Source: Candidatus Bathyarchaeia archaeon (GTDB taxonomy: Archaea; Thermoproteota; Bathyarchaeia; Bathyarchaeales; SOJC01). From it: 29,263 bases of DNA. Under the pieces are notes generated by a model that saw only the letters and a program-made list of their open reading frames with translations, did not search any database and was not told where the DNA came from. The stretch's first letter is position 1. Each line of letters begins with the position of its first letter. Where the stretch lies: the NCBI GenBank assembly GCA_046760665.1, contig JBHIEO010000001.1, positions 1-29,263 of the forward strand, read 5' to 3'. The translations under genes and the position numbers were made by a program. Below, in pieces: positions 14,900-28,991 of the stretch.

Positions 14900-15084
14900 G
14901 AATCTCGCCTAGTAACCGCAATTACAGAATACGTATTTTGAGTTTTCTGACATAAACAAGGTTAAAATTATCAAAAACGTGAAAACCGTTGTTGTATTTA
15001 TGGACAGCAACTTGGTTATTTTTTGTGTGTTCTGCCCAGCCTCGTTATTAGGTGCCCAAAAACATGTTCAAGGGCAACAGCGAT

Positions 15085-15840
15085 CTAAATTCTTCCACTC
15101 TTTTTAATAGTTGCCACAAGTCTTTTGAACCTGCTTTTAGTGCCTATTTCTTCGATTACGTTTCCAGTAACAACTATGTCTGCACCAGCCATAACAGCAG
15201 TTTTTGCTTGTTCGCTCTTCCGAATCCCGCCTCCAACAATCAATGGGATATTTATAGCTTGTTTTACGGTTTTTACCATGATTGGCGGAACAGGTTGACT
15301 TGCCCCAGACCCTGCCTCCAAATATACGAATCTCATACCAAAATATTGCGCCGCCAACGCATGGACTGCAGCAAGCTCCGGTTTCGTGTAGGGAATTGGA
15401 ACGGCTCGCCCTACTATTCCAGCAGTACCGCCTTCTCCTACGATAATGTAGCCTAGTGGTAGAGCTTCTAAACCGTATTTTTTAACCATAGGTGCGCCTA
15501 AAACTTGAGCGCCGATTAGAAAGTAAGGATCAGTCGAGTTTAGAAGGGACATAAACCATATTGCGTCAGCATATTTGCTGATTCCAGTCACGTTATTTGG
15601 AAACAAAATTATAGGAATTTTTACCGTGCGTTTTATCGCCTTTATTACACTGTCCAAATGTGTTGTGGATATAGAAGTAGAGCCCCCCACCATAATGGCT
15701 GTTGATTTGTACGTTTCTACTTTCTTAGCTATGCGAGAAGCAGAAGAGGCTGTAACTTTCTCTGGGTCAATAAGAGTTAGGTGAATAGCGCCTTCTTCTT
15801 GAATGTTTTCTAGAAGATATTTTTCTACAGGGCCAACCAT
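15085..15840 (-). CDS. Geranylgeranylglyceryl phosphate (GGGP) synthase, group II-like
   Basis: HLTLIDPEK, IMVGGS, PIILFP, YIIV, MRFVYLEAGSGA, LIVGGGIR, VTGN; start reassigned to ATG 15840. Confidence 0.93.
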   Translation of the reverse strand: MVGPVEKYLLENIQEEGAIHLTLIDPEKVTASSASRIAKKVETYKSTAIMVGGSTSISTTHLDSVIKAIKRTVKIPIILFPNNVTGISKYADAIWFMSLLNSTDPYFLIGAQVLGAPMVKKYGLEALPLGYIIVGEGGTAGIVGRAVPIPYTKPELAAVHALAAQYFGMRFVYLEAGSGASQPVPPIMVKTVKQAINIPLIVGGGIRKSEQAKTAVMAGADIVVTGNVIEEIGTKSRFKRLVATIKKSGRI

Positions 15841-15853
15841 ATGAAACCCTTTG

Positions 15854-16114
15854 CTACGTAGTTGTTGTAGTTTTTGATGCCCTCCTCTCACTATAGTATT
15901 TGTCGGTAAATCTGCAATAAACATCAATGCTCTTATAAGAGAGTTTAATAGGTAACTCGTCGGTCAAGTCGCAACCGCCACAACGCACCACAGCTCTTTC
16001 TTCTTCCTTAATAAGTTCAACGCGTATTGCTTCTTTTCCGCAGCGGGGGCAGAGAAAGACTTGTGGCAAACGCTTCTTGGGAATGCGAACAACTTTCCTC
16101 CGCCTTCTCCCCAT
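15854..16114 (-). CDS. elf1: Transcription elongation factor Elf1 (Zn ribbon)
   Basis: MGRRRRK, FLCPRCG...[13 protein letters not shown]; characteristic Elf1 pattern. Confidence 0.9.
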
Positions 16115-16183
16115 GTCTTCAAGCCTCTATTTCTTAACATCTAGCCAACATTCCTTAAATATTTACCCAAAGCCTCCACAATC

Positions 16184-16245
16184 TTTGAGCGTCTTGATAA
16201 CTGTTTAGCACTAAAAAGCGCAAGTATTTGAGCGTCTTGATAACT
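16184..16245. repeat. Perfect 19-bp direct repeat TTTGAGCGTCTTGATAACT x2 (16184-16202, 16227-16245)
   Basis: Read directly from the sequence; 24-bp spacer, 43-bp period. Confidence 0.95.
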
Positions 16246-17218
16246 TCCTCGGCATCACTAAATCTGCGATGTCTACGCTATGATCAAAAATTCGATACAT
16301 CGAGGACGCAACAGTCAAAGTAAGAGGCACAGCCTCTGTTGACTGTTTCTTTGCTGCGGATTCTATTTGGTGGAACGTATTCTCTATCTCTGTTTTTTCA
16401 TCTCGTACTTCTTCTGCTAGAACAACGTCATGCCCGAAGAACGCTTTTAGGGCCTTTTCTTGAGCCTCAAAAACTATTGAATGAAACTTTCCTATGAGCT
16501 TTGAAAACTCTTTAGAAACCTTCACTCCCTTTAACGCTAGGGTTTTATAAGCAATCTCTACGGATCTGTCACCTATAGTTTCAACAAGACTTGCACATAA
16601 GCGGTAGTCGAGGCAATCAATAGAGTGGATTCCTAATTTCTCGCCTAAACTTGGATTTTGGATTACAGTTCGCAGGATTCGTACATGGAGAAAATAAAGC
16701 CTATTCACTTCATCATCACGAGCAATCACATTTTTAGCTAAATGTACGTCGCCTTCTAGAAAGGCCCTTACGGCGTCTCGGTGCATGCTAGCGGCAATGT
16801 TGTACTCGCGTCTTAAAATCTTCTCAGGTGGAAACGCGGTGGGTTCCAACAAACATTGCAAAACAATACGGGCATAATTTTCCTCTACAATCTCCAAACC
16901 GACAAGACGACTAGAGGCTTGCTTGACTACTGTTCTCTCACTTGGTAGGATGTGGTTTTTAGCTTCAATACAAATTACATCATAACCAAGCAAATATTTA
17001 CCAACAATTTCTCTGTCTAAATAGCGTGTTGGTTTCAGCACAACGTTTAAGGGCTTACGTTCGACATCATATTGAGGGTCAAGACGTAAACGTCCATCAA
17101 TAGACTCCGAAACTGCTAAAAGTGCTCCTTTGTCAAGCCCAACACGTTCCGCCCAATCCTTAGGTAAGGAGACAAAAAAAGTACCGCTGTTGGTACGCTG
17201 AACCTTACGAAGCTCCAT
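16211..17218 (-). CDS. phoU: Phosphate-uptake regulator (AbrB/SpoVT N-domain plus two PhoU repeats)
   Basis: MELRKVQRTNSGTFFVSLPKDWA (AbrB), DDEVNRLYFL, ETIGDRSVEIA, RIFDHSVDIAD; start reassigned to ATG 17218. Confidence 0.88.
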   Translation of the reverse strand: MELRKVQRTNSGTFFVSLPKDWAERVGLDKGALLAVSESIDGRLRLDPQYDVERKPLNVVLKPTRYLDREIVGKYLLGYDVICIEAKNHILPSERTVVKQASSRLVGLEIVEENYARIVLQCLLEPTAFPPEKILRREYNIAASMHRDAVRAFLEGDVHLAKNVIARDDEVNRLYFLHVRILRTVIQNPSLGEKLGIHSIDCLDYRLCASLVETIGDRSVEIAYKTLALKGVKVSKEFSKLIGKFHSIVFEAQEKALKAFFGHDVVLAEEVRDEKTEIENTFHQIESAAKKQSTEAVPLTLTVASSMYRIFDHSVDIADLVMPRKLSRRSNTCAF

Positions 17219-17276: not shown

Positions 17277-17876
17277 GTGGCAAAAATGGAAGTTGAAAAG
17301 GAAGTTATAATAGGTATAGACTTGGCAGCTTTAGAAAAAAATCCAACAGGATGGGCCTATTGGAAAAACAAAAAAATTTTAACACGCTGCCCATATACAG
17401 ACAAAGAGATAGTAAATTTAACAGTCAACTACAAACCACGCATTGTAGCAATAGATGCACCTTTAACGCTGCCGCAAACTGGCACTACACGAAAAGCAGA
17501 CAAAGAAATGCTCAAACAAGGTTACCCTGTCTTTCCACCCCTTATGCACTCGATGAAAAGCCTTACTAAACGCGCTATTTCTCTAACCCATGTGCTGAGA
17601 ACCAACAGATTATGTGTCATTGAAATTCATCCCGCATCAACCAGAAAAGCCTTGGGCATGCCAACAAAAAACTGGCAAAAAGTTCAAACCTTTCTAAAGC
17701 AAATAGGCTTAAAGGGAGACCTCGAAATACGCACTCTAACACCACACGAAATCGACGCTATCACTGCTGCTCTAACAGCCTACCTACATTTACGAGGAAA
17801 GACCAGAGAAGTAGGCGATAGAAAAGAAGGGTCTATCGTGATTCCAATAAGAAATAGCTGGAAGGCAATTACATGA
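17277..17876 (+). CDS. DUF429-family predicted nuclease (RNase H-like fold)
   Basis: IIGIDLA, VAIDAPL, RxADKEM, IEIHP, HEIDAITAA acidic motifs; ATGA overlap with DP1. Confidence 0.82.
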   Translation: MAKMEVEKEVIIGIDLAALEKNPTGWAYWKNKKILTRCPYTDKEIVNLTVNYKPRIVAIDAPLTLPQTGTTRKADKEMLKQGYPVFPPLMHSMKSLTKRAISLTHVLRTNRLCVIEIHPASTRKALGMPTKNWQKVQTFLKQIGLKGDLEIRTLTPHEIDAITAALTAYLHLRGKTREVGDRKEGSIVIPIRNSWKAIT

Positions 17877-19426
17877 GCGAAAATGGAAAAGTACAGAAAG
17901 CAATCTCCCTTTCACTCACAGCAGGTTACCACCTCGACAAAGAAGCCTTCAATCTTCTCACTATTATATCAAAAACAGAGGACCCAGTGAAACTCATAAA
18001 AGCAACTCTAAAAAAACTAGAAACACGCATAGAAAGACCCCTCTTCATAAGCAAGAGCTTTCTTGAAGAAACAGCCAAAGAAACTCTCCTTGAAACCGAA
18101 GAAACAAAACCGGTTACAGCCCTCGTACGGGAGCCTTGTATAGCAACAGAGAAAGTTAAAAGGCCTTTCTTTCCCCACGCGAAAAACATTAAAAAAGACA
18201 TAAAAATATTAGAAGATCCAACCGACAAAATCTGCTCATCAGGTTCAGTTGATGAATATTTAGAATATTTTCATGATCGGTTTAAGCGGGTTAGAAAACT
18301 GCTGCGACAACGAATCGATTCTAGGAATGCTGCTTCAATAAAAGAGGCATTCCGAGCAACTTCTCGTTCAAGACTCAAGATAATTTGCATAGTTACTGAG
18401 AAACGTGAATCGAAATATGGAACTTTTTTAAGAATTGAGGACTTGGAATCTAGCGCTACGGTGCTCGTTCCTCGAAATACTTCTCGTGAACTATTAGAGA
18501 AAATGAAGTCGCTACTACTTGATCAAGTTGTATGCCTTAGTCTATTAAAAAGCAGAAGAAATCTGCTAATTGTTGAAGACCTCTTCTTTCCAGATGTCCC
18601 CCAAAAAAAGCCTCATAGAGCCAAAGAACCAGTCTATGCGGCACTCATATCTGACCTTCATGTTGGAAGTAAAGAATTTATGCAAGAAAAATTCAATCAT
18701 TTCGTTTTGTGGCTTAACGGAAAATATGGGAAGGAGAACTTAAAGCAAATTGCTAGTCTTGTTAAATATGTTATTATCGCAGGCGACATCGTAGACGGGA
18801 TAGGTATTTACCCAAACCAAATAGAGGAACTGGCGATACAAGATGTCTTCAAACAATATAAGTTCGCAGCCAATTTCATCGAACAAATTCCAGACTATAT
18901 AGAGTTGATAATAATTCCAGGAAATCACGATGCTTCAAGAAAGGCACTGCCACAACCTGCCCTTTTAAAGGAATATGCAGAACCCCTTTACGAAACACGA
19001 AACATTTTATCTCTAGGTAATCCAACAACTGTAAGCCTTCACGGTATAGAATTCCTCATATATCACGGGCGAAGCTTGGATGATGTTCTTGCAACAGCAG
19101 CTGATATGGATTTTCACTCGCCGGAAAGAGCTATGCGTTTGTTGCTTAGAGGTAGACACTTGGCACCTATATATGGCCAACGTACTTCCATTGCACCTGA
19201 GAAGCGAGATTTCCTTGTAATAGAGCGTGTTCCAGATGTTTTTCATGCAGGTCACGTACATGTGATGAAGTATGAACATTACAGAGGAACTCTCATGGTT
19301 AATTCTGGTGCTTGGCAAAAACAAACTAGTTATCAGAGAAATTTGGGTCTAAAACCTACACCAGGTATTATTCCGGTTGTAAATCTTCAGACACTTGCCG
19401 TTTTACCAATAGACTTTAATGCCTAG
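17873..19426 (+). CDS. polB: DNA polymerase D small (proofreading) subunit DP1
   Basis: OB fold followed by calcineurin-like phosphoesterase motifs ISDLHVGS, AGDIVDG, PGNHD, YHGRS, HAGHVH, NSGAWQ. Confidence 0.96.
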   Translation: MSENGKVQKAISLSLTAGYHLDKEAFNLLTIISKTEDPVKLIKATLKKLETRIERPLFISKSFLEETAKETLLETEETKPVTALVREPCIATEKVKRPFFPHAKNIKKDIKILEDPTDKICSSGSVDEYLEYFHDRFKRVRKLLRQRIDSRNAASIKEAFRATSRSRLKIICIVTEKRESKYGTFLRIEDLESSATVLVPRNTSRELLEKMKSLLLDQVVCLSLLKSRRNLLIVEDLFFPDVPQKKPHRAKEPVYAALISDLHVGSKEFMQEKFNHFVLWLNGKYGKENLKQIASLVKYVIIAGDIVDGIGIYPNQIEELAIQDVFKQYKFAANFIEQIPDYIELIIIPGNHDASRKALPQPALLKEYAEPLYETRNILSLGNPTTVSLHGIEFLIYHGRSLDDVLATAADMDFHSPERAMRLLLRGRHLAPIYGQRTSIAPEKRDFLVIERVPDVFHAGHVHVMKYEHYRGTLMVNSGAWQKQTSYQRNLGLKPTPGIIPVVNLQTLAVLPIDFNA

Positions 19427-20672
19427 ATTTATCAAGTTTTGTTTTCAAACAGTTAGGTGTAAAACTAGACAACTCGCCCAAGTGTGGGTCATTCGAATAC
19501 ACTTCTTTAAAAGGACTTCGTGGTATTGCAAGACTAATTTTCTTTGTACGCCCGTAGCGGCCTCTACTTACAACTCTTGAATTTAACAATCCAATTGCAT
19601 CAAGCTCACTTATAAGCCCACTTACCCGCCTTTGTGTCAACGGTGAGATTCCAACCTGTTTACATATTTCGGTATAAACCTCAAAAATGTCGCCAGTAAT
19701 AGCGGAGTAGATGTTGGCTTTTCCGAGAAGATATACGCTATAAAGAACAATTTTTGAGTGTAATGTTAAATTCGTTAAGGCTTCAATTATTCTATCGTGC
19801 TCAATGCGTCTTGCAGCTTCTCTAACACAATCTTCAGTGACTAATTGTGCGTTGTCCCTCTCAGCTACCTCACCTGCTACACGCAGTAAGTCGAGTGCCC
19901 GTCTCGCGTCTCCATGTTCTGCAGCAGCTAAGGCTGCACATAAGCTAACAGCCCCATCAAGCAACACCCCTTTGTAAAAGGCCAACTCTGCTCGTTCCCA
20001 CAAAATGTCTTGAAGTTCAGAGGCATTATAAGGTCTAAACATCACCTCCTCTTCACTTAAAGAGCTTAAAACACGAGGCTCTAAAAGTTCTTTGAAACGC
20101 ATATCGTTCGAAATTCCCACAATAGAAACTTTACCTTTATTAATATACTCATTTACTCTTGTCAGTTCGTATAAAAGCACGTCACCTCTAGTCTTAATCA
20201 ACTCATCTAATTCATCTAACACAACAATAAGTGATAACTTTCGCGTATCCAAGCCTTTTTTAAAACGATCAAAAACCTCCCCAACCGCAAGTCCAGTAAA
20301 TGGTACGTAAATGTCCAAGGTGTTACATAAGCTTGTAAAAACCCTGTATTCTGTTCCTGCTAAGCGACAATTGACGTATGCTACTTTGACTGGTGCACCA
20401 AATTCAGTCGCCTTTTGTGCTAAGCGATTTAATACATACTTCATGACAGCAGTTTTTCCAGTGCCTGTTTTTCCATATATAAAGATATTTGAACATCTTT
20501 CTGTTTTCAAAAGTGGGGCAACGATCATACCTAAATGTTTTATTTGTTCTTCACGGTGGGGTAACTTTTCTGGAACATAGTCATGGCGAAGTACATCTCG
20601 GTCTTTAAAGAAACGGGTGCTACTTAAGAAACGATTAAAGACAACATCGAGCATATCTTCTCCTCTTTTCAT
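19416..20672 (-). CDS. cdc6: Orc1/Cdc6 replication initiator
   Basis: YVPEKLPHRE, Walker A GKTGTGKT, Walker B VLDELD, GISND, GDARRALDLLR, C-terminal wH GRYGRT. Start is ATG 20672 or 20654; the ORF-track start 20804 runs through an ORB and is over-extended. Confidence 0.97.
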   Translation of the reverse strand: MKRGEDMLDVVFNRFLSSTRFFKDRDVLRHDYVPEKLPHREEQIKHLGMIVAPLLKTERCSNIFIYGKTGTGKTAVMKYVLNRLAQKATEFGAPVKVAYVNCRLAGTEYRVFTSLCNTLDIYVPFTGLAVGEVFDRFKKGLDTRKLSLIVVLDELDELIKTRGDVLLYELTRVNEYINKGKVSIVGISNDMRFKELLEPRVLSSLSEEEVMFRPYNASELQDILWERAELAFYKGVLLDGAVSLCAALAAAEHGDARRALDLLRVAGEVAERDNAQLVTEDCVREAARRIEHDRIIEALTNLTLHSKIVLYSVYLLGKANIYSAITGDIFEVYTEICKQVGISPLTQRRVSGLISELDAIGLLNSRVVSRGRYGRTKKISLAIPRSPFKEVYSNDPHLGELSSFTPNCLKTKLDKSRH

Positions 20673-20707
20673 AATATGATCTTCTCCCTTCAGCAAATGC
20701 ACTTGTA

Positions 20708-20728
20708 AAGCCTTGGTTTCAACTGGAG
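20708..20728 (-). promoter_or_regulatory. ORB-like element 1 (degenerate G-string)
   Basis: CTCCAGTTGAAACCAAGGCTT on the minus strand, in the cdc6 leader/promoter region. Confidence 0.65.
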
Positions 20729-20859
20729 AAAATAAACACTTTCCTACAAAAAAATAAAGACTTACTATAGAACTTAAAAAGAAAAGTATAGGATTAAGGA
20801 ACATGTTTTGAGAATATAGAGGATAAATAGTTTAACTCATTTTCCTAAGTTGCACGCTC

Positions 20860-20880
20860 CCCCCTTGTTTTCCTTTAGAA
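20860..20880 (-). promoter_or_regulatory. ORB element 2
   Basis: TTCTAAAGGAAAACAAGGGGG on the minus strand. Confidence 0.8.
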
Positions 20881-20920
20881 ACTCTTTTTTAAAAAATAGG
20901 AATAGGGGATTTCTGTTAAA

Positions 20921-21005
20921 AGAAATATACTCTAAAATTTAATTAAAAAAACTAATTATATTTTTAATGCTTTAATTATTTTTAGCAAAAACACTATTTT
21001 ATTTT
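20921..21005. other. AT-rich tract, candidate DNA-unwinding element
   Basis: About 10 G+C in 85 nt by hand count. Confidence 0.7.
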
Positions 21006-21056
21006 CCGCAACCTGCTTTTGCAATATAGATTAGTAATACTGATTCGTTTATAGGT

Positions 21057-21077
21057 TTGCAGTGGAAATGTAGGGGT
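21057..21077 (+). promoter_or_regulatory. ORB element 3
   Basis: TTGCAGTGGAAATGTAGGGGT. Confidence 0.88.
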
Positions 21078-21201
21078 TGGTGCAGATGTACGTCGCCGAC
21101 AGTTTGTGAAGCATGTGTAAAATTTAACTTATTTTGAAACTTCTAGCTAGATATTTCACTTCTTTTTATATCTTTTCTGCTTATTTAGCTGTGAAGAAGA
21201 G

Positions 21202-21222
21202 ACCCCTTCATTTCCTTTGGAA
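21202..21222 (-). promoter_or_regulatory. ORB element 4
   Basis: TTCCAAAGGAAATGAAGGGGT on the minus strand; its G-string faces that of ORB3. Confidence 0.88.
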
Positions 21223-21416
21223 AATTAAAGAATATTATCGGTTTTTTCCAGTTTTTGGGAAAAGTTTGCATGTGAAGACTGTTAACCCATAATAATTGCA
21301 AAAGAGCCTTCTTATTCCTGTACATCGCCATTTTCTGCTTCCTTTTTTATGCGGTTTTTTCGTAACACCTATAACTTGTGAAATGTAAAGTGTTAAGGCT
21401 TGTTATGGTGTGTGTA

Positions 21417-21836
21417 ATGCCCGCTAGGAAAATGCGCGTAGAAGTCTTTGATGAAAATGGGAATCGTTACACTATAACTTTTGAGGGCAAAGTTACTAGG
21501 AAAAAGGCTTTGTGTCTTCTTGATATTGTTGAGTTGCTAGGTGGCGTAAATGACACACAAGAACTAAAGTATGAAATGAGTAATATTTCAAAATTTGACA
21601 AGACCAAACTGGTGGTTAAAAAACATTTTCCTTTTATGTGGTTTTCTTCTAAAGAGGTTCTTTACATGTATGAACAAGAACTAAATGAACCTATATCCCT
21701 TAGCACAATTTCAACATATTTGGCGAGAATGGTTGACCGTGGATTTCTCATAAGAAAAGGCCCAGTCTATGACAGGAAATATCGGATGATGACAGAACTG
21801 ACGCAAAAAGCTATGAAGATTACAGAAAATAGATAA
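21417..21836 (+). CDS. Origin-adjacent hypothetical protein with C-terminal winged helix
   Basis: N-terminal beta-rich MRVEVFDENGNRYTITFEG; C-terminal WFSSKEV...EPISLSTISTYLARMVDRGFLIRKG...RKYRM wHTH pattern. Start reassigned to ATG 21417. Confidence 0.75.
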   Translation: MPARKMRVEVFDENGNRYTITFEGKVTRKKALCLLDIVELLGGVNDTQELKYEMSNISKFDKTKLVVKKHFPFMWFSSKEVLYMYEQELNEPISLSTISTYLARMVDRGFLIRKGPVYDRKYRMMTELTQKAMKITENR

Positions 21837-21909
21837 GCAAAACTGTTGTAAAAAGATTTACTGTACATTCACACTATTTTGAATTTTGAAGATTTCAGGA
21901 GTATACCTA

Positions 21910-22896
21910 ATGGATAAAGAACTCCAAGCTTACTTCAACGAGATGAAGAAGATATTAAAGAATTACGTTGAAAAGGGCCAAGTGGTAAGTTTAAGGGATG
22001 TAAAGGATGAGCCTTCAATATCTGTTAAGCCAACACTAGCTAAGATTGCCCCACTAAAAAAAATGAAAACTTGCGACGTACATTTCTTTGCGGTAGATTG
22101 TTCAACACGAACATTAAAAAGGGCAAATAATTGGGGTATATACCTTCTTCGAGCTTCATATGCTACTGTAAAGAAAAGGAGTGTCGATTGGGGGTTTAAA
22201 GAGGCAATTCGAACGATTAAAGGGGATCCACATGTACGCCGCAAAATTTTGCAGGAAATTAGGCTTCAATTAGAGAGCGAGATGGCTTTAGGCTTACTTC
22301 AGAAAGCCGATGAAAACGACTATATTCTTTTGGATGGTGCTAGCTACTTTGGTGGTGAGAGAAAATTTAATGTCATGCTTTATGAGAAATGCGAGAGAAA
22401 AGGAATAAAACTCCTTGCTATAAGCAAGCGTTCTCCCATTCTTCGTGACGAAAAAGGTCGTGACCTTATTGCTGCGACGTACATGCTTGCCCCTCAAGGG
22501 CGTTGGGTATATTATCCGGTTAAGAAAGCTAATATTCACGAGCATCTTTATGGCGACGTATCTATTATTAAACTGTGTGAGGACAGTCCACGTGCTTTTA
22601 GATGTGATATAATGAGTTATTTAACCAGCAGCAATATATCATCATTACTTTCACCGCTTTCAACAATCTCAGAAGATCCTCGATGCTTAGGGTACCCAGT
22701 GGTGCTGTGGTTGGCCCATGATTTTTCAGGTGTTTCCGAGACCAAACTTCTTCGATATCATGTCCAAGTTGAAGAGGAGTTGGCAAGTGCCGGCCTTCTT
22801 GATGTACTTCGTCAAGAAGAAATTGCTTGCAATTTTGCGGATGTGCTTCATGGAGCGAAGTATGCCTTCAATTGGGAGTGGATTGAAAGTGTCTAA
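21910..22896 (+). CDS. nurA: NurA-family nuclease (divergent)
   Basis: FAVDCS, ILLDGA, AISKRS, LGYPVVLWLAH motifs; ATG 21910 follows AGGAG; overlaps the herA start. Confidence 0.85.
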   Translation: MDKELQAYFNEMKKILKNYVEKGQVVSLRDVKDEPSISVKPTLAKIAPLKKMKTCDVHFFAVDCSTRTLKRANNWGIYLLRASYATVKKRSVDWGFKEAIRTIKGDPHVRRKILQEIRLQLESEMALGLLQKADENDYILLDGASYFGGERKFNVMLYEKCERKGIKLLAISKRSPILRDEKGRDLIAATYMLAPQGRWVYYPVKKANIHEHLYGDVSIIKLCEDSPRAFRCDIMSYLTSSNISSLLSPLSTISEDPRCLGYPVVLWLAHDFSGVSETKLLRYHVQVEEELASAGLLDVLRQEEIACNFADVLHGAKYAFNWEWIESV

Positions 22897-24430
22897 CCAT
22901 TTGGGCTCAATATGTGAAGTAAAAGGTGACAAAATATCCTTTTTTCTAAATAAAAATACAAACTTGTCTTTTGGACAAATAGTTCGTATAGATTCGGGTA
23001 ATAGCAGTTTTTATGCCCGAGTTGTGAATGCTCAAAGCAGATCTACCCTTGACACAGGGGAGCAACTTCGTGAAGCGGAAGGAAAAGAAACTTTTGGCCC
23101 CTACTCCTGTTACAAAAACATTGAGGCAATTCTTTTTCTTGAGAGGAAAGCTGGAAAAACTCGATCCCCCACTTTTAACCCTAACTATATGGATAAGGTA
23201 TACCCAACAAGTGCAGAAGACTCCAATGTGTTGAAACTTGCAGGAGAGCTAGTGATAGGGCGTCTGCGATCTGGAGAGCAAACCCTCGGCAAGGTGGGCA
23301 TAAACGTTGATGCTATACCCCGAATGATGGGCATGTTTGGCATGACAGGGTCTGGAAAAACCAACACTGAACTAATAATAAACGCACAGCTAATTGACCA
23401 CAGCCCAAAAACTGTGGGCCTGATCTTTGATTTTGCCGGGCAATTACTTGAAGGAAAGGAAATTGGAGGAAAAGGATTGCGAAACCACCCTCGGTTTCAC
23501 AGTCGAGTCAGTTTCTATACTACGAAGGAGAATAAAATGCGCATTGGCCTGCATACACTTTTCCCTTGGAAACTACTCACTCTTTTCCCTGAAATTGGTT
23601 ATCCGCAATATCGACTTGCTAAAGAGTTACACAAAAAACTAGGGAATAAATGGATAGAAAAGGCCCGTGAAAGGTATGTAGTGAAAGGCTACAAGGGGAT
23701 TGCTGAGATAGCAGGATATAGCAATAAGGTGGTCATAGAGGCATTAATGAGTAAACTGTTAAACCTTGACTCGAGTCTTTTTCCACCTTCTAGCTACAGC
23801 TTCATAGACAGTGTCATTCAGAACGTAACCGAGGGCATTACTTGCTTGGTGGACATTTCAGGAATAAGTTCTGAGGAGCAACACAGAATTGTGTGTCTAA
23901 CTGCTACGGGAGTAGCGAACCACTATAAACGGATGTGGGAAGAACACTACGAAGAATGGCAAAGGTTTCCCACACTACTCATAACTCTCGAAGAAGCTCA
24001 TGAATTCCTTGACCCGAACAAGCCGAAAACAATTTTTTCCGCTATCGCCTTAACATACCGAAAATATCGTGTAGGATTGAACGCTGTGACGCCACGACCT
24101 TCTCGCATTAACTCTGACGTGTTTGCAGAACTCTGGACGAAGGTAATCATGAAAACTGAATTGAAGACCGACAGAGAATACCTCACTAAAAACACGCCAT
24201 ATCTTGAATACAGCGACACAGAAGTAAAGATGCTTGACATAGGAGAAGCATTGCTAATATCTGAACCGAAGATTCGGTTTGCAGTCCCAGTGAAAGTAAT
24301 GCATTATCCTGAATACTTAGAGGCCCAAGGGAAAGTAGACTATGACCTGCCAGCCTCTAAGACCCTTGACACACTAGACAAAAATCTGAAACGGCTACGT
24401 AACGCAGGTGAAAAGCTCAGCCTCAGCTAG
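22889..24430 (+). CDS. herA: HerA/FtsK-family ATPase (HAS barrel plus DUF87-like), divergent
   Basis: N-terminal HAS-like LGSICEV...FGQIVRI, Walker A GMTGSGKT, Walker B LITLEEAHEFL, RKYRVGL. Start reassigned to GTG 22889 (or TTG 22883) after GGGAGTGG. Confidence 0.88.
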   Translation: MSNHLGSICEVKGDKISFFLNKNTNLSFGQIVRIDSGNSSFYARVVNAQSRSTLDTGEQLREAEGKETFGPYSCYKNIEAILFLERKAGKTRSPTFNPNYMDKVYPTSAEDSNVLKLAGELVIGRLRSGEQTLGKVGINVDAIPRMMGMFGMTGSGKTNTELIINAQLIDHSPKTVGLIFDFAGQLLEGKEIGGKGLRNHPRFHSRVSFYTTKENKMRIGLHTLFPWKLLTLFPEIGYPQYRLAKELHKKLGNKWIEKARERYVVKGYKGIAEIAGYSNKVVIEALMSKLLNLDSSLFPPSSYSFIDSVIQNVTEGITCLVDISGISSEEQHRIVCLTATGVANHYKRMWEEHYEEWQRFPTLLITLEEAHEFLDPNKPKTIFSAIALTYRKYRVGLNAVTPRPSRINSDVFAELWTKVIMKTELKTDREYLTKNTPYLEYSDTEVKMLDIGEALLISEPKIRFAVPVKVMHYPEYLEAQGKVDYDLPASKTLDTLDKNLKRLRNAGEKLSLS

Positions 24431-25125
24431 CTTTTTTGCTCTGGTTTTTTCAAAATTTTCTGCATCTCTTCTTTCAAACGGTAAGTGAAAGGAATTTTGT
24501 TTGCATTGCGTTCTAAGTAGCCCTCTTCATAAAGCTTTTTCATTAGGCGAGCGGTGTGTTCCCTGCTAAGTTTTATTCGCTCCTTTATTTCAGGCGCCGT
24601 TTTTTCACCTTCCACAGCAAGGAATTCAAGAACAGTAAGCTCAGTTGCAGTTAATGGTGCTAACGCTTTTTCTCGTTTTATCGGAATTGCGGACTTAATT
24701 TTTACTTCAGACTCTGGGCCAGGCCGTTGCTTTTTGAGTTCAGTAATCTTTTGCAACAAAGAATCTTTCATCGACACAACCTCGCTGAGTTTATTCTCCA
24801 GCGCATCAATTCTGGCTAGCGCTTTTTCCAAGGCGGGGAAGGATTCAATTCTTTTTGCAAGTGCCTGAACCTCTCTCTCTTGCATCTCCAGTTTTTCAGC
24901 CAATAATTCGTCGCGGTTGTAAAGAACATCAATCTTGCTAGCTGAGGTTTCAAGCTGAGATTCTTGTCTTTGAAGTTGTCTGTTAAAACTTACAACAATA
25001 TCGTCCACTACACCCTTTGCCTCTACATATCTTTCACAAGCTTCACGTATTCGCTTATTATATAAAATTGCAACAACCAACGTGAAGACTGACAAACCGC
25101 TTACAACAACAAGAGTTTCAAACAT
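24427..25125 (-). CDS. Membrane-anchored coiled-coil protein with C-terminal winged helix (MarR/TrmB-like wHTH)
   Basis: Hydrophobic residues 4-22 (TLVVVSGLSVFTLVVAILY), heptad-rich region about 45-133, then LTATELTVLEFL...TAPEIKERIKLSREHTARLMKKLYEEGYLER...PFTYRL; SD GAGGCG. Confidence 0.82.
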   Translation of the reverse strand: MFETLVVVSGLSVFTLVVAILYNKRIREACERYVEAKGVVDDIVVSFNRQLQRQESQLETSASKIDVLYNRDELLAEKLEMQEREVQALAKRIESFPALEKALARIDALENKLSEVVSMKDSLLQKITELKKQRPGPESEVKIKSAIPIKREKALAPLTATELTVLEFLAVEGEKTAPEIKERIKLSREHTARLMKKLYEEGYLERNANKIPFTYRLKEEMQKILKKPEQKS

Positions 25126-25138
25126 TAGTATCGCCTCG

Positions 25139-25257
25139 TGTGATTTCTCCGTGATTTACTGTGACCTACATGACGTCACAATCGATATCACAATATTGAA
25201 CAAGATGACTTAAAGTTTGTGGCGAAGGTCGCGATTATTGTGACGTCACAAATCACG
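25139..25257. repeat. TGTGA-N2-TCACA palindrome cluster 1
   Basis: Perfect TTGTGACGTCACAA at 25238-25251; degenerate copies TGTGACCTACAT 25160, CATGACGTCACA 25169 and ATCGATATCACA 25181; half-sites at 25139, 25150 and 25252. Confidence 0.85.
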
Positions 25258-25399
25258 TCGCTGAAAACTTAGAAGCAACACTTAGCGAGAAATTGCTAGA
25301 AATCAGGGCCTTTTTAGAGGTCTATTTCATGATAGAGGGTTATTTTTGAGCGGAAATTAGTGCCGCTTAATTCTTGAGGTTTAATGAGGGCTTGAGCCA

Positions 25400-25418
25400 T
25401 GTGATGTGTGATATCACG
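25400..25418. repeat. TGTGA-N2-TCACA palindrome cluster 2
   Basis: TGTGATG followed by TGTGATATCACG (25407-25418; perfect core GTGATATCAC). Confidence 0.75.
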
Positions 25419-25896
25419 AATTAGATGAGGGCCATGTTTTTGATAGTTGATTAAGCATTGTTTCAAGTTCTTCGCGCAACATGTTTATGACTTTTTTTTG
25501 TTCTTCTGCTCTCTCGTGGTTATATACGAGATCTCTATACGCTGTTGTATATGCTTTTAGTTTATTTGCAATTTCTAGGTAAGGAGTTAAGCTTGTATCT
25601 TCGAGGATGCCGAGGTAGCCGAGAAGAAGAATTGTATATATTGATTGTATGATGTTTCTTTTAGCTTGTCTTAATGTCCTGTTGAAGGAACCGCGGCTTA
25701 TCGCTGCCTTTGTTAGCCTTAATTTGGCTTTTTCTTCGTATTTTAGCGATTTTGAGGCTAAATTTTCAGCTAAAACGTCTATAAGGAGTGTTTCAAGCTG
25801 TATTCTAGTTAAATTGCTATTTTTTGCAAGTATTTTTACAAGGGAATCTTCTAGTGAGCGTTTTATCCAATTTCGAACATTTTTTTTGAAGGACAA
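25414..25896 (-). CDS. Hypothetical protein with HTH-like region (Tfx/sigma70-r4-like) and helical C-terminus
   Basis: NSNLTRIQLETLL...YEEKAKLR...ISRGSFNRTLRQAKRNI resembles the Tfx-type LTxxQ...HTH; TTG start after GGTGG. Family assigned by eye. Confidence 0.65.
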   Translation of the reverse strand: MSFKKNVRNWIKRSLEDSLVKILAKNSNLTRIQLETLLIDVLAENLASKSLKYEEKAKLRLTKAAISRGSFNRTLRQAKRNIIQSIYTILLLGYLGILEDTSLTPYLEIANKLKAYTTAYRDLVYNHERAEEQKKVINMLREELETMLNQLSKTWPSSNS

Positions 25897-26014
25897 GATT
25901 CCACCAGACGTTCCATGTTTATTGGATACAGTTTTGTATACAAGTTGAATATAGTTTTTCTGTTGCAGAGTTGGATTTTGCCATATCTTTTAAATTTGTA
26001 AAGGTAAACGTTTT

Positions 26015-27229
26015 ATGTTAGGAGAATTAAAGGAAAACGAGGAAAAACGCTTGCAAACACGTAAAAAAAAGGCCGAAAGGTTAAGAAATATCAAGCCTTC
26101 CGGAATTCGTCGTCTTTTTGCATTAACTCAAGAAGCCCCAAGCCTCATAAGCCTCGGTTTGGGAGAGCCCGACTTTACGCCTCCAAGACATATTTTGGAG
26201 GCAGCTAAACATGCGATGGATGAAGGAAAAACTCATTATACACCTTCGAACGGTATTCCCGAATTGAGAGAGGCCTTAGCGAAGAAATTTATACAAGAAT
26301 ATGGGCTTTCCTATAGTCCAGAGAATGAAATCTTAGTTACCGTAGGGGCAACAGAAGCCGTCTCTCTTGCGTTATTAGCCTTCATAAATCCTGGCGATGA
26401 AGTGCTATTACCTGACCCTGGTTTTGTTTGTTACAAACCTGCAGTGTTAATTGCGGGCGGGATTCCTGTTTCAATGCCAATGCTTGAGAATGATGGTTTT
26501 AAACCAGATATAGAAACTGTGACATCACTTATCACAAAGAAGTCACGTGTGATTATTATCAACTCCCCCAACAACCCTACAGGGTCTATTTTAACATATG
26601 ACGAGTTGGCAGAATTAGCAAAACTTGCAGTTGAAAACGATTTGGTTGTGATTTCTGATGAGGTTTATGAAAAAATTGTCTATGACGATGCAAAACACTA
26701 TTGCTTAGCAACATTTCCTGGCATGCGTGGTCGAACAATAGTTGTTAATTCCTTTTCTAAAACATATGCGATGACTGGTTTTCGTGTTGGCTACGCATTA
26801 GGACCTGAAGATTTAATCTCAGCCATGTTTCTTGTTCAACAATTTACTGTAGCATGTGTTGATGGGCCGGCACAATATGCTGCTACGGCAGCTTTGGAAG
26901 GTTCGCAAAAATTCGTATCGAACATGGTTTCTAAATTTGACAAAAGACGTAGACTTGTCTACAAGCGATTAAGTGAAATTGAAGGATTTGATTGCTCACT
27001 TCCAAAGGGTGCATTCTACGCTTTTCCAAACATTAAAGCATTTAAAACCGCGTCTGATGATTTTTCCGAGTTCCTTTTGAAAGAGGCTCAAGTTTTTGTA
27101 ACACCTGGTTCCTCGTTTGGCAGGTACGGCGAAGGCTTTTTGCGACTGTCTTATGCTGCAGCCTATGAAAAAATTGATGAAGCTTTGGGTAGGATAGAAA
27201 GAGCTATTAAAAAGTTTAAGAAATCCTAA
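26015..27229 (+). CDS. Class I/II PLP aminotransferase (aspartate aminotransferase-like)
   Basis: LGLGEPDF, YTPSNGIPELR, NSPNNPTG, ISDEVYE, NSFSKTYAMTGFRVG (PLP lysine), GAFYAF, LRLSYA. Confidence 0.95.
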   Translation: MLGELKENEEKRLQTRKKKAERLRNIKPSGIRRLFALTQEAPSLISLGLGEPDFTPPRHILEAAKHAMDEGKTHYTPSNGIPELREALAKKFIQEYGLSYSPENEILVTVGATEAVSLALLAFINPGDEVLLPDPGFVCYKPAVLIAGGIPVSMPMLENDGFKPDIETVTSLITKKSRVIIINSPNNPTGSILTYDELAELAKLAVENDLVVISDEVYEKIVYDDAKHYCLATFPGMRGRTIVVNSFSKTYAMTGFRVGYALGPEDLISAMFLVQQFTVACVDGPAQYAATAALEGSQKFVSNMVSKFDKRRRLVYKRLSEIEGFDCSLPKGAFYAFPNIKAFKTASDDFSEFLLKEAQVFVTPGSSFGRYGEGFLRLSYAAAYEKIDEALGRIERAIKKFKKS

Positions 27230-27248
27230 GTTTTAGAAAGGCTAAATC

Positions 27249-27257
27249 TCTTTTTTT
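27249..27257 (+). terminator. Candidate oligo-T terminator after the aminotransferase
   Basis: TCTTTTTTT about 20 nt after the stop codon. Confidence 0.35.
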
Positions 27258-27268
27258 GGGCTTATTCA

Positions 27269-27315
27269 ACATCACGTATACATCACATGGCTGTGACATA
27301 TGTGATGTCACAGCC
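27269..27315. repeat. TGTGA-N2-TCACA palindrome cluster 3 and 11-bp inverted repeat
   Basis: ACATCAC at 27269 and 27280, TGTGAC at 27292, TGTGATGTCACA at 27301-27312; IR GGCTGTGACAT (27289-27299) / ATGTCACAGCC (27305-27315). Confidence 0.8.
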
Positions 27316-28141
27316 TTTCTGAGAATTCCTTTAATGAAGCGTACAGTTCTGGTCTCAAATCGCGAAGGGTGGGCACAAAGGCTTCTACTGGTCTTAAGTC
27401 TTCATAATCTACGGATCCGAATGAAATATCTTCCTCATCATATTTTGTTTGTGTAATGATGGTGCCACTTGGTCCTATGAGGCGGCTTCCTCCCCAAAAC
27501 TGTAACCCGTCTTCTATGCCAACAAGGTTTACGTATGCTAAGAAGCATGTGTTTTCTATTGCTCGTGCAGTTGTAAGGACTTCGAAAAATTTTTTCCTTA
27601 TAGCCGGTGAAGCTGAGATGCAAATTACGAATTTTGCTCCTTGGATGCGTAATGCCCGAGTTGTTTCTGGGAAGAATATGTCGTAGCATATGGTTATGCC
27701 TATTTTTCCGAGGCTTGTTTCGAAGACTGGCGTTTGGTATCCTGGTCTGAAGTATCTTTTTTCTTCGAAAACGCTGTGGGTTGGTAAATGCATTTTTCTG
27801 TATTTGCCGATGTAGCCTTCTGGTCCTGTTAGGACGGCTGTGTTGTAGAGTATTGCCTTTCCTTTTTCGCTTCGTTCTGGCATGCCATGGATTACGTAGA
27901 GGTTTTCTTTTTTAGCCATTTTTTCGATTTTTTCTGTCGAAGGTCCTGGAACTTCTTCGGCTAGTTCATATGTTAGGTCTCTTGTGGTATATCCTGTGAG
28001 GGACATTTCAGGGAAAATGATGACGTCGGCTTTTTGTTTTTTGGCTTGTATAACGTATTTTGATATTTTACTGATATTATGTTGCTTGTTTCCGATTTTG
28101 CAGGGGAATTGGGCTAAGGCTACCTTGAACGGGTTCTTCAT
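27308..28141 (-). CDS. Carbon-nitrogen hydrolase (nitrilase-family amidase/glutaminase)
   Basis: Glu-Lys-Cys triad motifs IFPEMSLTGY, YRKMHLP, ITICYDIFFPE; also FWGGS. Confidence 0.93.
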   Translation of the reverse strand: MKNPFKVALAQFPCKIGNKQHNISKISKYVIQAKKQKADVIIFPEMSLTGYTTRDLTYELAEEVPGPSTEKIEKMAKKENLYVIHGMPERSEKGKAILYNTAVLTGPEGYIGKYRKMHLPTHSVFEEKRYFRPGYQTPVFETSLGKIGITICYDIFFPETTRALRIQGAKFVICISASPAIRKKFFEVLTTARAIENTCFLAYVNLVGIEDGLQFWGGSRLIGPSGTIITQTKYDEEDISFGSVDYEDLRPVEAFVPTLRDLRPELYASLKEFSERL

Positions 28142-28142
28142 G

Positions 28143-28991
28143 TTATGCTGCCTCTGTTGTGCGAGTAAGTCTAAAGTCGGTGTTTATAGTTCGGTACTCG
28201 AGTTTTGTTGTTAAAGGCATTTTTCTTTTGTGTTCTGTTTGTAACCATCTTTTTTTAACAGATGCAATAGTCTTGGTTGGCAAACGAAGTTGTTTTGCTA
28301 TTGTTTGTACAGACATGAAATGTTCCAAGCCATAAAGAATTAGGTCTATGGTTTCATATTTTAGACCTAACTCTCCTTCTGCCGTCTGGTTTGGCCACAG
28401 GGCAGGGGTTGATGGTTTTCTAGCAATTTCTGGTGGTATGCCAATGTGAAGGGCAAGCTGACGGACTTGGGTTTTGTAGAGATCCATGATGGGAGCGATG
28501 TCTGCGGCTGCATCCCCCCATTTGGTGTAGTAGCCTATCATAGTTTCACTTTTGTCGCTGCTGCCGGCTACGACACGGTTTTGGCAGTTTGCGTAATAGT
28601 AAAGAATGAGCATGCGCGTTCGAGCTTTGAGGTTTCCTCGGCTTATCTTGTCTTTTGGGTTATAATCGGGGATGATTTTGTATAAAGTATTTAGAGTTTC
28701 TGTAAGGTCGATAGTTTTTAGTTGAAATTTGAATTTTTTGGCGAGTTGTTTTACATGTTTGTGGTCAGTTTCGTTGTAAGTTTCTTTTTCTGGCATGTAG
28801 AGTGCTAGAAGTTTATCGGGCCCTATAGCCATTGTAGAGAGAGCAACTGTGGTGGCACTGTCAACTCCTCCTGAAACTCCTAAGACTATGCCTTTTGCTT
28901 TTGTCTTGTTTATGTAGTCTTTGATAAAACGTGTGATTTTTTGCTGCGTAGTTTTCGGGTTAATTTGGAGTAGTTTGTCTGCTAGTCTCAT
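28143..28991 (-). CDS. nadE: NAD+ synthetase (single-domain synthetase subunit)
   Basis: VLGVSGGVDSA, GNLKARTRM, GSSDKSE, GYYTKWGD, DLYKTQV, KPSTPALW. Confidence 0.96.
   Translation of the reverse strand: MRLADKLLQINPKTTQQKITRFIKDYINKTKAKGIVLGVSGGVDSATTVALSTMAIGPDKLLALYMPEKETYNETDHKHVKQLAKKFKFQLKTIDLTETLNTLYKIIPDYNPKDKISRGNLKARTRMLILYYYANCQNRVVAGSSDKSETMIGYYTKWGDAAADIAPIMDLYKTQVRQLALHIGIPPEIARKPSTPALWPNQTAEGELGLKYETIDLILYGLEHFMSVQTIAKQLRLPTKTIASVKKRWLQTEHKRKMPLTTKLEYRTINTDFRLTRTTEAA

Follow-up and report, generated by a model that had tools for sequence, protein, structure and literature searches.

The window described here is a 29,263-nt stretch of DNA from a Candidatus Bathyarchaeia archaeon (assembly GCA_046760665.1, contig JBHIEO010000001.1). 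It carries a small gene, here called P1, together with clusters of the short DNA word GTGAY and its complement RTCAC, located in and around the P1 promoter and in the genes beyond it. P1 is predicted to encode a transmembrane (TM) helix, a coiled coil and a C-terminal winged helix-turn-helix (wHTH) domain, and it is accompanied by a second putative DNA-binding protein, P2. On the other side of P1 lies the spacer between cdc6 and orf152, which has origin recognition box (ORB)-like elements and is taken as the chromosomal origin (oriC). A sequence-only reading of the window had reported three palindrome clusters at 4–6 kb from this origin and proposed that they are centromere-like sites, bound by P1 and/or its helix-turn-helix neighbour P2. 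All three clusters are present (25139–25257, 25400–25418 and 27269–27315), and a fourth, at 26518–26553 within the coding sequence (CDS) of an aminotransferase gene, had been missed. The clusters lie 3.9–6.1 kb from the ORB-like elements, and the last one does sit between two convergent 3′ ends, its palindrome also overlapping a stop codon (Table 1).

Table 1. Genes, protein domains and site clusters on the origin side of the window (positions are those of the window)
Feature	Position	Strand	Remarks
PolD small subunit	17873–19426	+	
cdc6	19416–20804	−	adjoins the oriC spacer
cdc6–orf152 spacer, taken as oriC	20805–21377		~570 bp; ORB-like GGAAAn3RGGGG elements with G-strings, AT-rich tract
ORB-like elements	~20848–20873, 21057–21082, 21203–21225		within the cdc6–orf152 spacer
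12%-GC tract	20921–21005		within the cdc6–orf152 spacer
orf152	21378–21836	+	small wHTH protein, no Pfam family; directly beside the ORBs
NurA–HerA	21886–24430	+	between orf152 and P1
P1 gene	24427–25125	−	open reading frame (ORF), 232 residues; TM helix, coiled coil, linker, MarR-type wHTH
P1 wHTH domain, residues 150–226	24448–24678	−	recognition helix SREHTARLMKKLY
P1 coiled-coil stalk, residues 23–133	24727–25059	−	from AlphaFold2 and alignment; PDB profile matches only to coiled coils
P1 N-terminal hydrophobic helix, ~residues 4–22	25060–25116	−	followed by NKRIRE; predicted N-out/C-in
Proximal array	25139–25194		between P1 TATA box and start codon, over the expected transcription start site (TSS) and leader; TGTGAT 25139, CGTGAT 25150, TGTGAC 25160, TGACGTCACAAT 25171–25182, GATATCACA 25184–25192
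Predicted P1 TFB recognition element (BRE)/TATA box, CCACAAACTTTAAGTC	25205–25222	−	orthologue consensus ccATAAnnTTTAAGTTT; conserved block between both arrays in 12 loci
Upstream tri-site	25238–25257		perfect palindrome TTGTGACGTCACAA (25238–25251) plus third half-site at heptad spacing (GTGACGTCACAAATCAC, 25240–25256)
Tri-site 2	25400–25418		TGTGATGTGTGATATCACG; minus strand GTGATATCACACATCAC, 25401–25417; its GTGA gives the TGA stop of P2 (25414–25416)
P2 gene	25414–25896	−	160 residues; Tfx/sigma-70 region 4-like helix-turn-helix; conserved neighbour
Class I/II aminotransferase	26015–27229	+	
Intragenic cluster in aminotransferase CDS	26518–26553		tri-site GTGACATCACTTATCAC plus GTCACgtGTGAT
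Distal cluster between convergent genes	27269–27315		ATCAC at 27271 and 27282, GTGAC 27293, perfect TGTGATGTCACA (27301–27312) overlapping the CN-hydrolase TGA stop (27308–27310)
CN hydrolase	27308–28141	−	convergent with aminotransferase
NAD synthase			beyond CN hydrolase in gene order

A chance origin of the clusters is excluded by shuffle and genome-wide counts. When one mismatch is allowed, TGTGANNTCACA has four matches in the window against 0.94 expected, a number reached by 0 of 100 shuffles. The perfect TGTGANNTCACA occurs twice in the 824-kb assembly, both times at the P1 locus, which also holds four of the 14 assembly-wide copies with at most one mismatch. The densest 130-bp windows of GTGAY/RTCAC in the assembly are found at 25131 (8 sites), 26521 (5) and 27271 (5), with all others containing at most four, so the impression gained by eye that such clusters are peculiar to this region holds genome-wide. 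With the locus masked, half-site pairs of any orientation and a spacing of 0–13 bp do not rise above a reversed-word control in the assembly (G000). The same is seen in five complete relatives, where 2–4 of the 5–8 perfect GTGAYRTCAC copies lie within ~2 kb at the locus and the remainder equal the reversed-word control counts. A genome-wide regulon was rejected on these two grounds.

The repeat unit is the half-site tGTGAY; 78% of its copies have the T at −1. It is usually arranged in abutting inverted pairs (GTGAYRTCAC), in heptad direct repeats or in direct repeats phased at 10–11 bp. The latter phasing had been noted in the window, and it recurs in 13 orthologous promoters, where the common half-site spacings are 5 (the palindrome), 7, 10 and 11 bp. 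A 17-bp tri-site, GTGAYRTCACNNRTCAC, is repeated at 25240–25256, 25401–25417 and 26519–26535. In 201 Bathyarchaeia genomes it has ~108 matches, spread over 74 genomes (versus one control match), and coordinate comparison places all except two of them next to P2/P1. Overlap of the tri-site with the P2 stop codon is found in nearly every genome that bears it.

The sites upstream of P1 follow an ordered layout that is repeated in 12 loci from other genera and families: a tri-site, ~22 nt, the block ccATAAnnTTTAAGTTT, ~20 nt, two forward half-sites and three reverse half-sites at 10–11 bp, followed by a Shine-Dalgarno sequence and an ATG. In the window, the five half-sites of the proximal array read GTGAT, GTGAC, GTCAC, ATCAC and ATCAC on the minus strand, again spaced by 10–11 bp. 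The conserved block is most readily understood as the BRE and TATA box of the P1 promoter. In each of Bathyarchaeia, Nitrososphaerota and Methanomethylicia, arrays flank this box and extend over the leader, as an autoregulatory operator would. Because sites occupy both sides of the TATA box and extend across the leader, P1 would control its own synthesis if it binds them; autoregulation is near certain if P1 binds at all. We consider it likely that P1 does bind the arrays and regulates itself. The earlier idea of centromere-like sites stands insofar as the arrays are a cis element tied to P1, and has to be amended in that the main cluster, which brackets the P1 TATA box, would be at least an autoregulatory operator.

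The TM–coiled-coil–wHTH layout first read from the sequence is supported by the hydrophobic helix, the AlphaFold2 model and the Pfam MarR match, all of which agree. The hydrophobic helix has a 19-residue Kyte-Doolittle mean of 2.36, and according to the positive-inside rule it is predicted to be an N-out/C-in signal anchor. A cleaved signal peptide, which would have undermined a membrane tether, was rejected: a positive n-region is missing, K/R residues come after the hydrophobic stretch, and what would be exported is a DNA-binding domain. The AlphaFold2 model (predicted local distance difference test score of 84) contains two long helices with heptad character (residues 2–94 and 97–133), a disordered linker (134–149) and the wHTH domain (151–225), in which the recognition helix (188–200) is followed by a beta wing and one short helix (219–225). 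Within the stalk, a juxtamembrane segment (Y..RI..Y..AK..V..IV.SF) is moderately conserved in the alignment and the rest is variable.

The DNA-binding head belongs with the MarR family. Pfam MarR (PF01047) matches residues 158–209 at 29.3 bits, above its gathering cut-off of 24.6, and the top Foldseek matches are MarR-family wHTH domains, aligned over ~77–80 columns at a root-mean-square deviation of 2–4 Å; the fold of the archaeal centromere binder AspA appears at rank 25. Full-length P1 deviates from MarR chains by ~15 Å, and the compact triangular arrangement of N- and C-terminal dimer helices flanking the MarR wHTH is not found in the P1 model, where the wHTH is preceded by the TM helix, 130 residues of helical stalk and the disordered linker. 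TrmB (PF01978) reaches 23.9 bits (E = 3.8e-5), below its gathering cut-off of 25.6, and the C-terminal TrmB effector or sugar-binding domain is absent from P1. A PDB sequence search returned generic MarR wHTH domains at E ~0.04 and coiled-coil noise only, and no MerR-type domain was detected by Pfam, PDB sequence search or fold search. In 20 class-wide orthologues, the recognition helix follows the pattern S/T-REHTxRLMKKL, and residues of the helix and wing are invariant (R188, E189, H190, R193, K196, L198, G202, R206, P212 and Y215). REH..R..K is also invariant in the orthologues of Nitrososphaerota and Methanomethylicia, so that across three classes an invariant recognition helix matches an invariant half-site.

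This match speaks against an alternative in which the arrays are bound by P2 alone or by a P1–P2 complex, with P1 acting as a co-factor or as the regulated target. P2 is itself a predicted DNA binder; it has no Pfam match, and its protein-atlas feature and structure neighbours are Tfx and sigma70_r4 proteins. It is also the most constant neighbour of P1, co-occurs with it in most genomes and almost always carries the tri-site over its stop codon. However, nine loci from four families (f14, f23, f26 and f28) have cdc6, orf152 and P2 in place and lack P1 by tblastn and profile hidden Markov model searches, and in these 20-kb loci there is no perfect palindrome and no window with at least four half-sites per 100 bp. 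Class-wide, the same families have P2 in 17/18, P1 in 0/18 and the tri-site in 0/18, and three genomes with neither P1 nor P2 contain no palindromes. Since the P1-less loci keep P2 and orf152 yet are without arrays, the sites track P1 and not P2. Both P2 and orf152 were rejected as array binders for this reason. The suggestion that the helix-turn-helix neighbour binds the sites did not hold up: P2 is probably not the binder, and we regard the alternative as improbable. The nine loci do not count as nine independent knockouts. In the Cdc6 gene tree the P1-less families all fall into a single larger clade, but a family that has P1 is nested among them; this needs at least two changes, and the co-loss evidence therefore amounts to about two events.

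P1 is a single-copy gene in 34 of 41 close relatives and in 160 of the 201 sampled Bathyarchaeia. A phylum-wide profile search revealed orthologues in 45/45 sampled genomes of one Nitrosopumilaceae-like family, among them Nitrosopumilus oxyclinae WP_179363658.1 (annotated as 'MarR family/winged helix'), and in Methanomethylicia, including Methanosuratincola and Culexmicrobium. In Nitrosopumilaceae, the gene order is PolD small subunit, cdc6, ORBs and orf152, followed by P1 in convergent orientation. Here, P1 is preceded by GTGAT-N4-GTGAT and ATCAC-N5-ATCAC arrays that reach into the 3′ end of a P2-like gene, all sites falling in ~300 bp that span the promoter and the adjoining gene ends; in three complete genomes these arrays are the sole triple cluster of GTGAT pairs. 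At three of the Nitrosopumilaceae loci (L073, L074 and L082), the half-sites ~200 bp upstream of P1 enter the 3′ coding part of the P2-like gene and are read as V-I and D-V-I codons (…DVISKL…SVINESDIF…EVIDVIDRL…), so protein sequence and DNA sites are interleaved. The Methanomethylicia orthologues have GTGAT/ATCAC arrays in front of them as well and adjoin orf152. The motif is locus-specific, deeply conserved at orthologous loci and lost wherever P1 is lost. No P1 relatives were found in viral contigs, and given the stable syntenic block a mobile-element origin of the module was rejected. A full-text literature search gave no description of the P1 family in Bathyarchaeia or Nitrosopumilus.

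The sites beyond the promoter are conserved in position. Spacings between the distal nodes are nearly constant (~780, 1110 and 130–190 bp) in G007 and G018 and match those of the window. The site at the 3′ end of the CN-hydrolase gene is found at the same place in six further loci (L013, L015, L016 and L018–L020), and where the aminotransferase gene is absent (L014 and L016), the site on the CN-hydrolase or NAD-synthase side is still kept. In other families hypF stands between P2 and P1, with arrays inside the hypF CDS. Within the aminotransferase gene, third-codon-position identity at the intragenic site is 0.82, compared to a gene mean of 0.61 (standard deviation 0.07). Its Ser codon is always TCA and its Val codon always GTG, and a Thr/Met swap uses ACA/ACG or ATG, the choices that preserve GTGAYRTCAC. 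Because third-position identity is raised and codon choice keeps the palindrome, we judge this site to be under DNA-level selection. The proposal that sites also occur outside promoters is borne out by this CDS and by the two sites that overlap stop codons.

In those two cases the TGA stop is itself part of a GTGA(Y) half-site, for P2 and, on the opposite strand, for the CN hydrolase; in L058 one site ends 3 nt ahead of the hypF stop. Sites seem to favour gene 3′ ends, where they may serve as protein roadblocks or where they may merely be cheapest to locate. L058 (G047:C15) also has a 3.3-kb stretch at 13692–17018, between hypF and P2, of 20–37% GC and with no ORF of at least 90 residues. It consists of three or four duplicated modules, each comprising a gene 3′ end and a tri-site, and has no Rfam match. 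P1 sites could have been amplified locally to give this stretch, or it could be a gene region in decay. In this genome, G047, site modules are multiplied over 7 kb.

At 27289–27315, directly after the aminotransferase gene, GGCTGTGACAT/ATGTCACAGCC pair perfectly over 11 bp around a loop of 5 nt, and TTTCT comes next. This inverted repeat contains the distal palindrome and could double as a terminator-like hairpin. It lends some appeal to the view that the inverted repeats act as RNA, as a leader hairpin or terminator, and GUGAU can indeed pair with AUCAC in the leader. The leader, however, folds no better than shuffles (z = −1.46), and a consensus fold of nine orthologues has a covariation term of +0.3. 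Its core pairs never vary and its spacers do, which argues for sequence recognition rather than pairing. The sites moreover flank the TATA box on either side and also occur within CDSs, on either strand. With no Rfam match and no covariation, an RNA element was rejected. A related proposal, an iteron-type secondary origin with P1 as the initiator, draws on the AT-rich spacer or array regions of some relatives (L051, 21–26% GC; L058, 20–37% GC). In the window, the P2–P1 spacer has 40.6% GC against 41.7% overall and is not AT-rich. It also holds no ORB-like words, and a Pfam scan of P1 found no helicase-loading or Rep domain. A secondary origin was rejected on the average GC and the missing ORB-like words, and we consider these RNA and iteron explanations very improbable.

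P1 usually lies 1–4 kb from cdc6 and the ORB-bearing origin and stands beside both in most lineages, including Nitrosopumilus, in keeping with the original placement of the module near oriC. The arrays are a useful marker of the origin-side neighbourhood in metagenome-assembled genomes (MAGs) of Thermoproteota. Pfam scans of the ten genes at 17873–28991 contained no ParB or ParA/CbiA domain, and more than 40 orthologous loci, compared by gene content, had no ParB/ParA-type neighbour either. In Bathyarchaeia, Nitrosopumilaceae and Methanomethylicia alike, orf152 converges on P1; as it persists where P1 is lost, its product is a deeply conserved DNA-binding protein of the origin side that does not depend on P1. 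Most families sampled from the window's order have NurA–HerA, without mre11/rad50, inserted between the two genes (G018 and three other families are exceptions), and wherever the insertion is missing orf152 and P1 converge directly. The start of P2 (25850–25990, minus strand) is ambiguous: the listed ORF opens at a TTG right after an A8 run and the open frame reaches 191 residues, and the orthologues align from residues 1–3 of the TTG-started version. Reads matching the window sequence came only from DNA metagenome runs of hydrothermal vents.

We propose the following mechanism. The C-terminal MarR-type winged helix of P1 would recognise the half-site (T)GTGAY, and the protein would probably form a parallel coiled-coil dimer or higher oligomer. 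Each DNA-binding head would sit on a flexible linker of ~16 residues, and this flexibility could allow occupancy of abutting palindromes, heptad repeats and phased repeats of 10–11 bp alike. Through the tri-site upstream of the BRE/TATA box and the five-site array over the TSS and leader, P1 would control how much of it is made, and repression at high occupancy is the most likely mode. The added sites at the P2 stop, in the next CDS and at the stop of the next gene would extend this operator to a multi-site platform of 2 kb, which in some relatives grows to 7 kb. The N-terminal signal-anchor helix would fix P1 in the membrane in Bathyarchaeia and Nitrososphaerota, and the occupied sites would then keep a stretch of chromosome that is normally 1–4 kb from cdc6/oriC attached there. 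If P1 is inserted co-translationally beside its own gene, this might solve the target search of a membrane-bound binder.

Membrane tethering of the origin-side locus is plausible in this light. The masked-locus null result and the variation of neighbours between lineages leave no other regulon visible, and with a TM anchor, a stalk of ~110 residues and conserved extra sites, physical attachment of DNA to the membrane would be the simplest functional output. We give about an even chance to the composite view of P1 as a sequence-specific, self-regulating binder that ties origin-side DNA to the membrane. An additional role of P1 in anchoring or segregation, taken by itself, is possible, its chances falling somewhat short of even.

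P1 could also be only an autoregulated, membrane-tethered one-component transcription factor. Its proximal arrays would then be cooperative operators, its distal sites would serve as auxiliary operators that raise the local concentration through DNA looping or as promoter-insulating roadblocks, and its membrane contact would be a by-product without a part in origin positioning or segregation. In every lineage, arrays stand on either side of a conserved TATA box and over the leader, which is what such a regulator would have, and auxiliary operators within coding sequence are familiar from the lac and gal operons. The confinement of Nitrosopumilaceae sites to ~300 bp about the promoter and adjoining gene ends fits it, as do TM-less orthologues that keep the arrays and a family, f24, that keeps the module without an adjacent origin. 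On the other hand, a regulator whose own promoter is the sole detectable target has no output. No consistent neighbour could be its regulon, as aminotransferase, CN hydrolase, HypF, NAD synthase and HerA vary by lineage, and P1 has no extracytoplasmic sensor domain that would justify its membrane location. Nor would it readily account for distal sites at 1.3 and 2.1 kb that are kept across genera, one of them apparently under DNA-level selection in a CDS, or for the 7 kb of multiplied site modules in G047. We consider this purely autoregulatory explanation somewhat unlikely.

Several points nevertheless weigh against the composite view of a self-regulating, origin-side membrane tether. Autoregulation by itself would fully account for the way in which the sites bracket the promoter. 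The sites are local, spanning 2.2 kb in the window and 0.3–7 kb at the P1 gene in relatives, and the 5-bp core is too short for excluding weak targets elsewhere; the source assembly, in which the window is contig C1, is a MAG of 824 kb in 96 contigs that is 66% complete. The membrane helix is widespread: 34 of 37 loci (27/27 Bathyarchaeia, 5/5 Nitrososphaerota, and L077 and L081 from further Thermoproteota) have an N-terminal Kyte-Doolittle mean of 1.98 or more, but the three Methanomethylicia loci have values of at most 0.31 and no TM helix and still keep their arrays. Membrane anchoring is therefore not the conserved core of the system. Linkage to the origin may likewise be inherited with a wholly syntenic neighbourhood and not selected. 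In f24, 43 of 46 genomes have P1; the adjacent cdc6-1/ORB/orf152 block is lost, and P2, P1 and arrays are kept. The sole cdc6 paralogue there is 31–34% identical and lies 343 kb away in the complete genome G157. Two loci of this family (L050 and L051, in G151 and G157) have the order big1141-o280-NADsyn-P2-(hypF)-P1-PolDs with arrays, and the P2–P1 spacer of L051 has 21–26% GC versus ~57% for its genome.

The closest functional analogues of P1 appear to be bacterial origin anchors and self-regulating centromere binders, and it is homologous to neither. RacA of B. subtilis, RicO of S. aureus and RocS of S. pneumoniae are origin–membrane anchors, and RicO has nine ricS sites over ~700 kb around oriC (bioRxiv 10.64898/2026.03.06.710092; PMC11500499; PMC13042908). 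P1 would resemble this trio in the predicted combination of a small wHTH head, a self-associating coiled coil and membrane attachment, and RacA and RicO in its short palindromic sites near oriC. RacA lacks a membrane module and relies on DivIVA instead, a parallel to the TM-less P1 of Methanomethylicia. P1 differs in that it is archaeal (Thermoproteota) and of reversed domain order, with an N-terminal anchor and a C-terminal DNA-binding head. Its head is MarR-type instead of MerR-type, and its membrane device is a predicted integral TM helix, whereas the bacterial proteins use a C-terminal amphipathic helix or a partner. Site distribution is a further difference, and one that also counts against anchoring: RacA has ~25 ram sites over several hundred kb, and ram, ricS and parS are all spread over hundreds of kb, whereas the P1 sites are packed into 0.3–7 kb at their own gene. 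The P1 sites are not spread around oriC like the ram and parS sites to which the sequence-only reading had likened them.

Self-regulating centromere binders include those of type Ib/II partition systems (omega with its WATCACW heptads, and ParR–parC) and the archaeal SegB and AspA. Like omega and ParR, P1 is associated with arrays of direct and inverted short repeats in or next to its own promoter, and it shares heptad spacing and the ATCAC core with omega. As in centromere binders generally, operator and centromere would be one, with sites unique to the locus. Unlike partition systems, P1 has no adjoining ParA/SegA-type ATPase gene, and its locus is chromosomal, origin-side and conserved over three classes, as opposed to mobile elements. 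Omega and ParR are ribbon-helix-helix proteins, whereas P1 has a wHTH with a TM anchor and a long stalk. In membrane-integrated one-component regulators such as ToxR, CadC and TcpP, the DNA-binding domain is N-terminal, a periplasmic sensor domain is present and other genes are regulated. P1 would share with them a DNA-binding domain that a single TM helix keeps at the membrane and that contacts promoter DNA while membrane-bound; it differs in having essentially nothing outside the membrane, a stalk of ~110 residues and no detectable target beyond its own locus. Finally, TrmB and TrmBL1 are archaeal wHTH proteins that, with the Thermococcales glycolytic motif TATCAC-N5-GTGATA, use a similar ATCAC/GTGAT half-site, and P1 has a weak Pfam match to TrmB. 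Their half-site geometry is different, however, and the TrmBL1 regulon is genome-wide, whereas P1 has no sugar-binding domain and no visible genome-wide regulon.

To our knowledge, chromosome positioning and segregation are largely obscure in archaea outside Sulfolobales and haloarchaea, and we know of no archaeal protein by which the envelope is linked to the origin region. P1 with its arrays is a candidate for a non-homologous archaeal version of such a system, acting as a site-specific chromosome–membrane anchor or a self-regulating centromere-like binder. At its furthest, the module might be an ancient, self-nucleating and self-regulating 'centromere plus anchor' beside oriC, encoded where it binds and common to Bathyarchaeia, Nitrososphaerota and, as a soluble version, Methanomethylicia. 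It would position or segregate newly replicated origins, or couple their firing to the envelope, in archaea for which segregation machinery is not known to be described; we hold this to be less likely than not. If true, it would be the first archaeal counterpart of RacA, RicO and RocS, and independently evolved. The P1 family, annotated just as 'MarR family' or 'hypothetical', combines a single-copy protein with a precisely defined DNA word that does not vary and with a target locus that is unique and can be mapped. P1 is present in cultured ammonia oxidisers, and the module makes the question of a chromosome–envelope link testable. Should P1 prove to be a mere autoregulator, it would still be unusual: an archaeal transcription factor integrated into the membrane, with a stalk but neither a sensor domain nor a regulon beyond itself, whose operator grammar has nonetheless been kept together with the protein across three classes.

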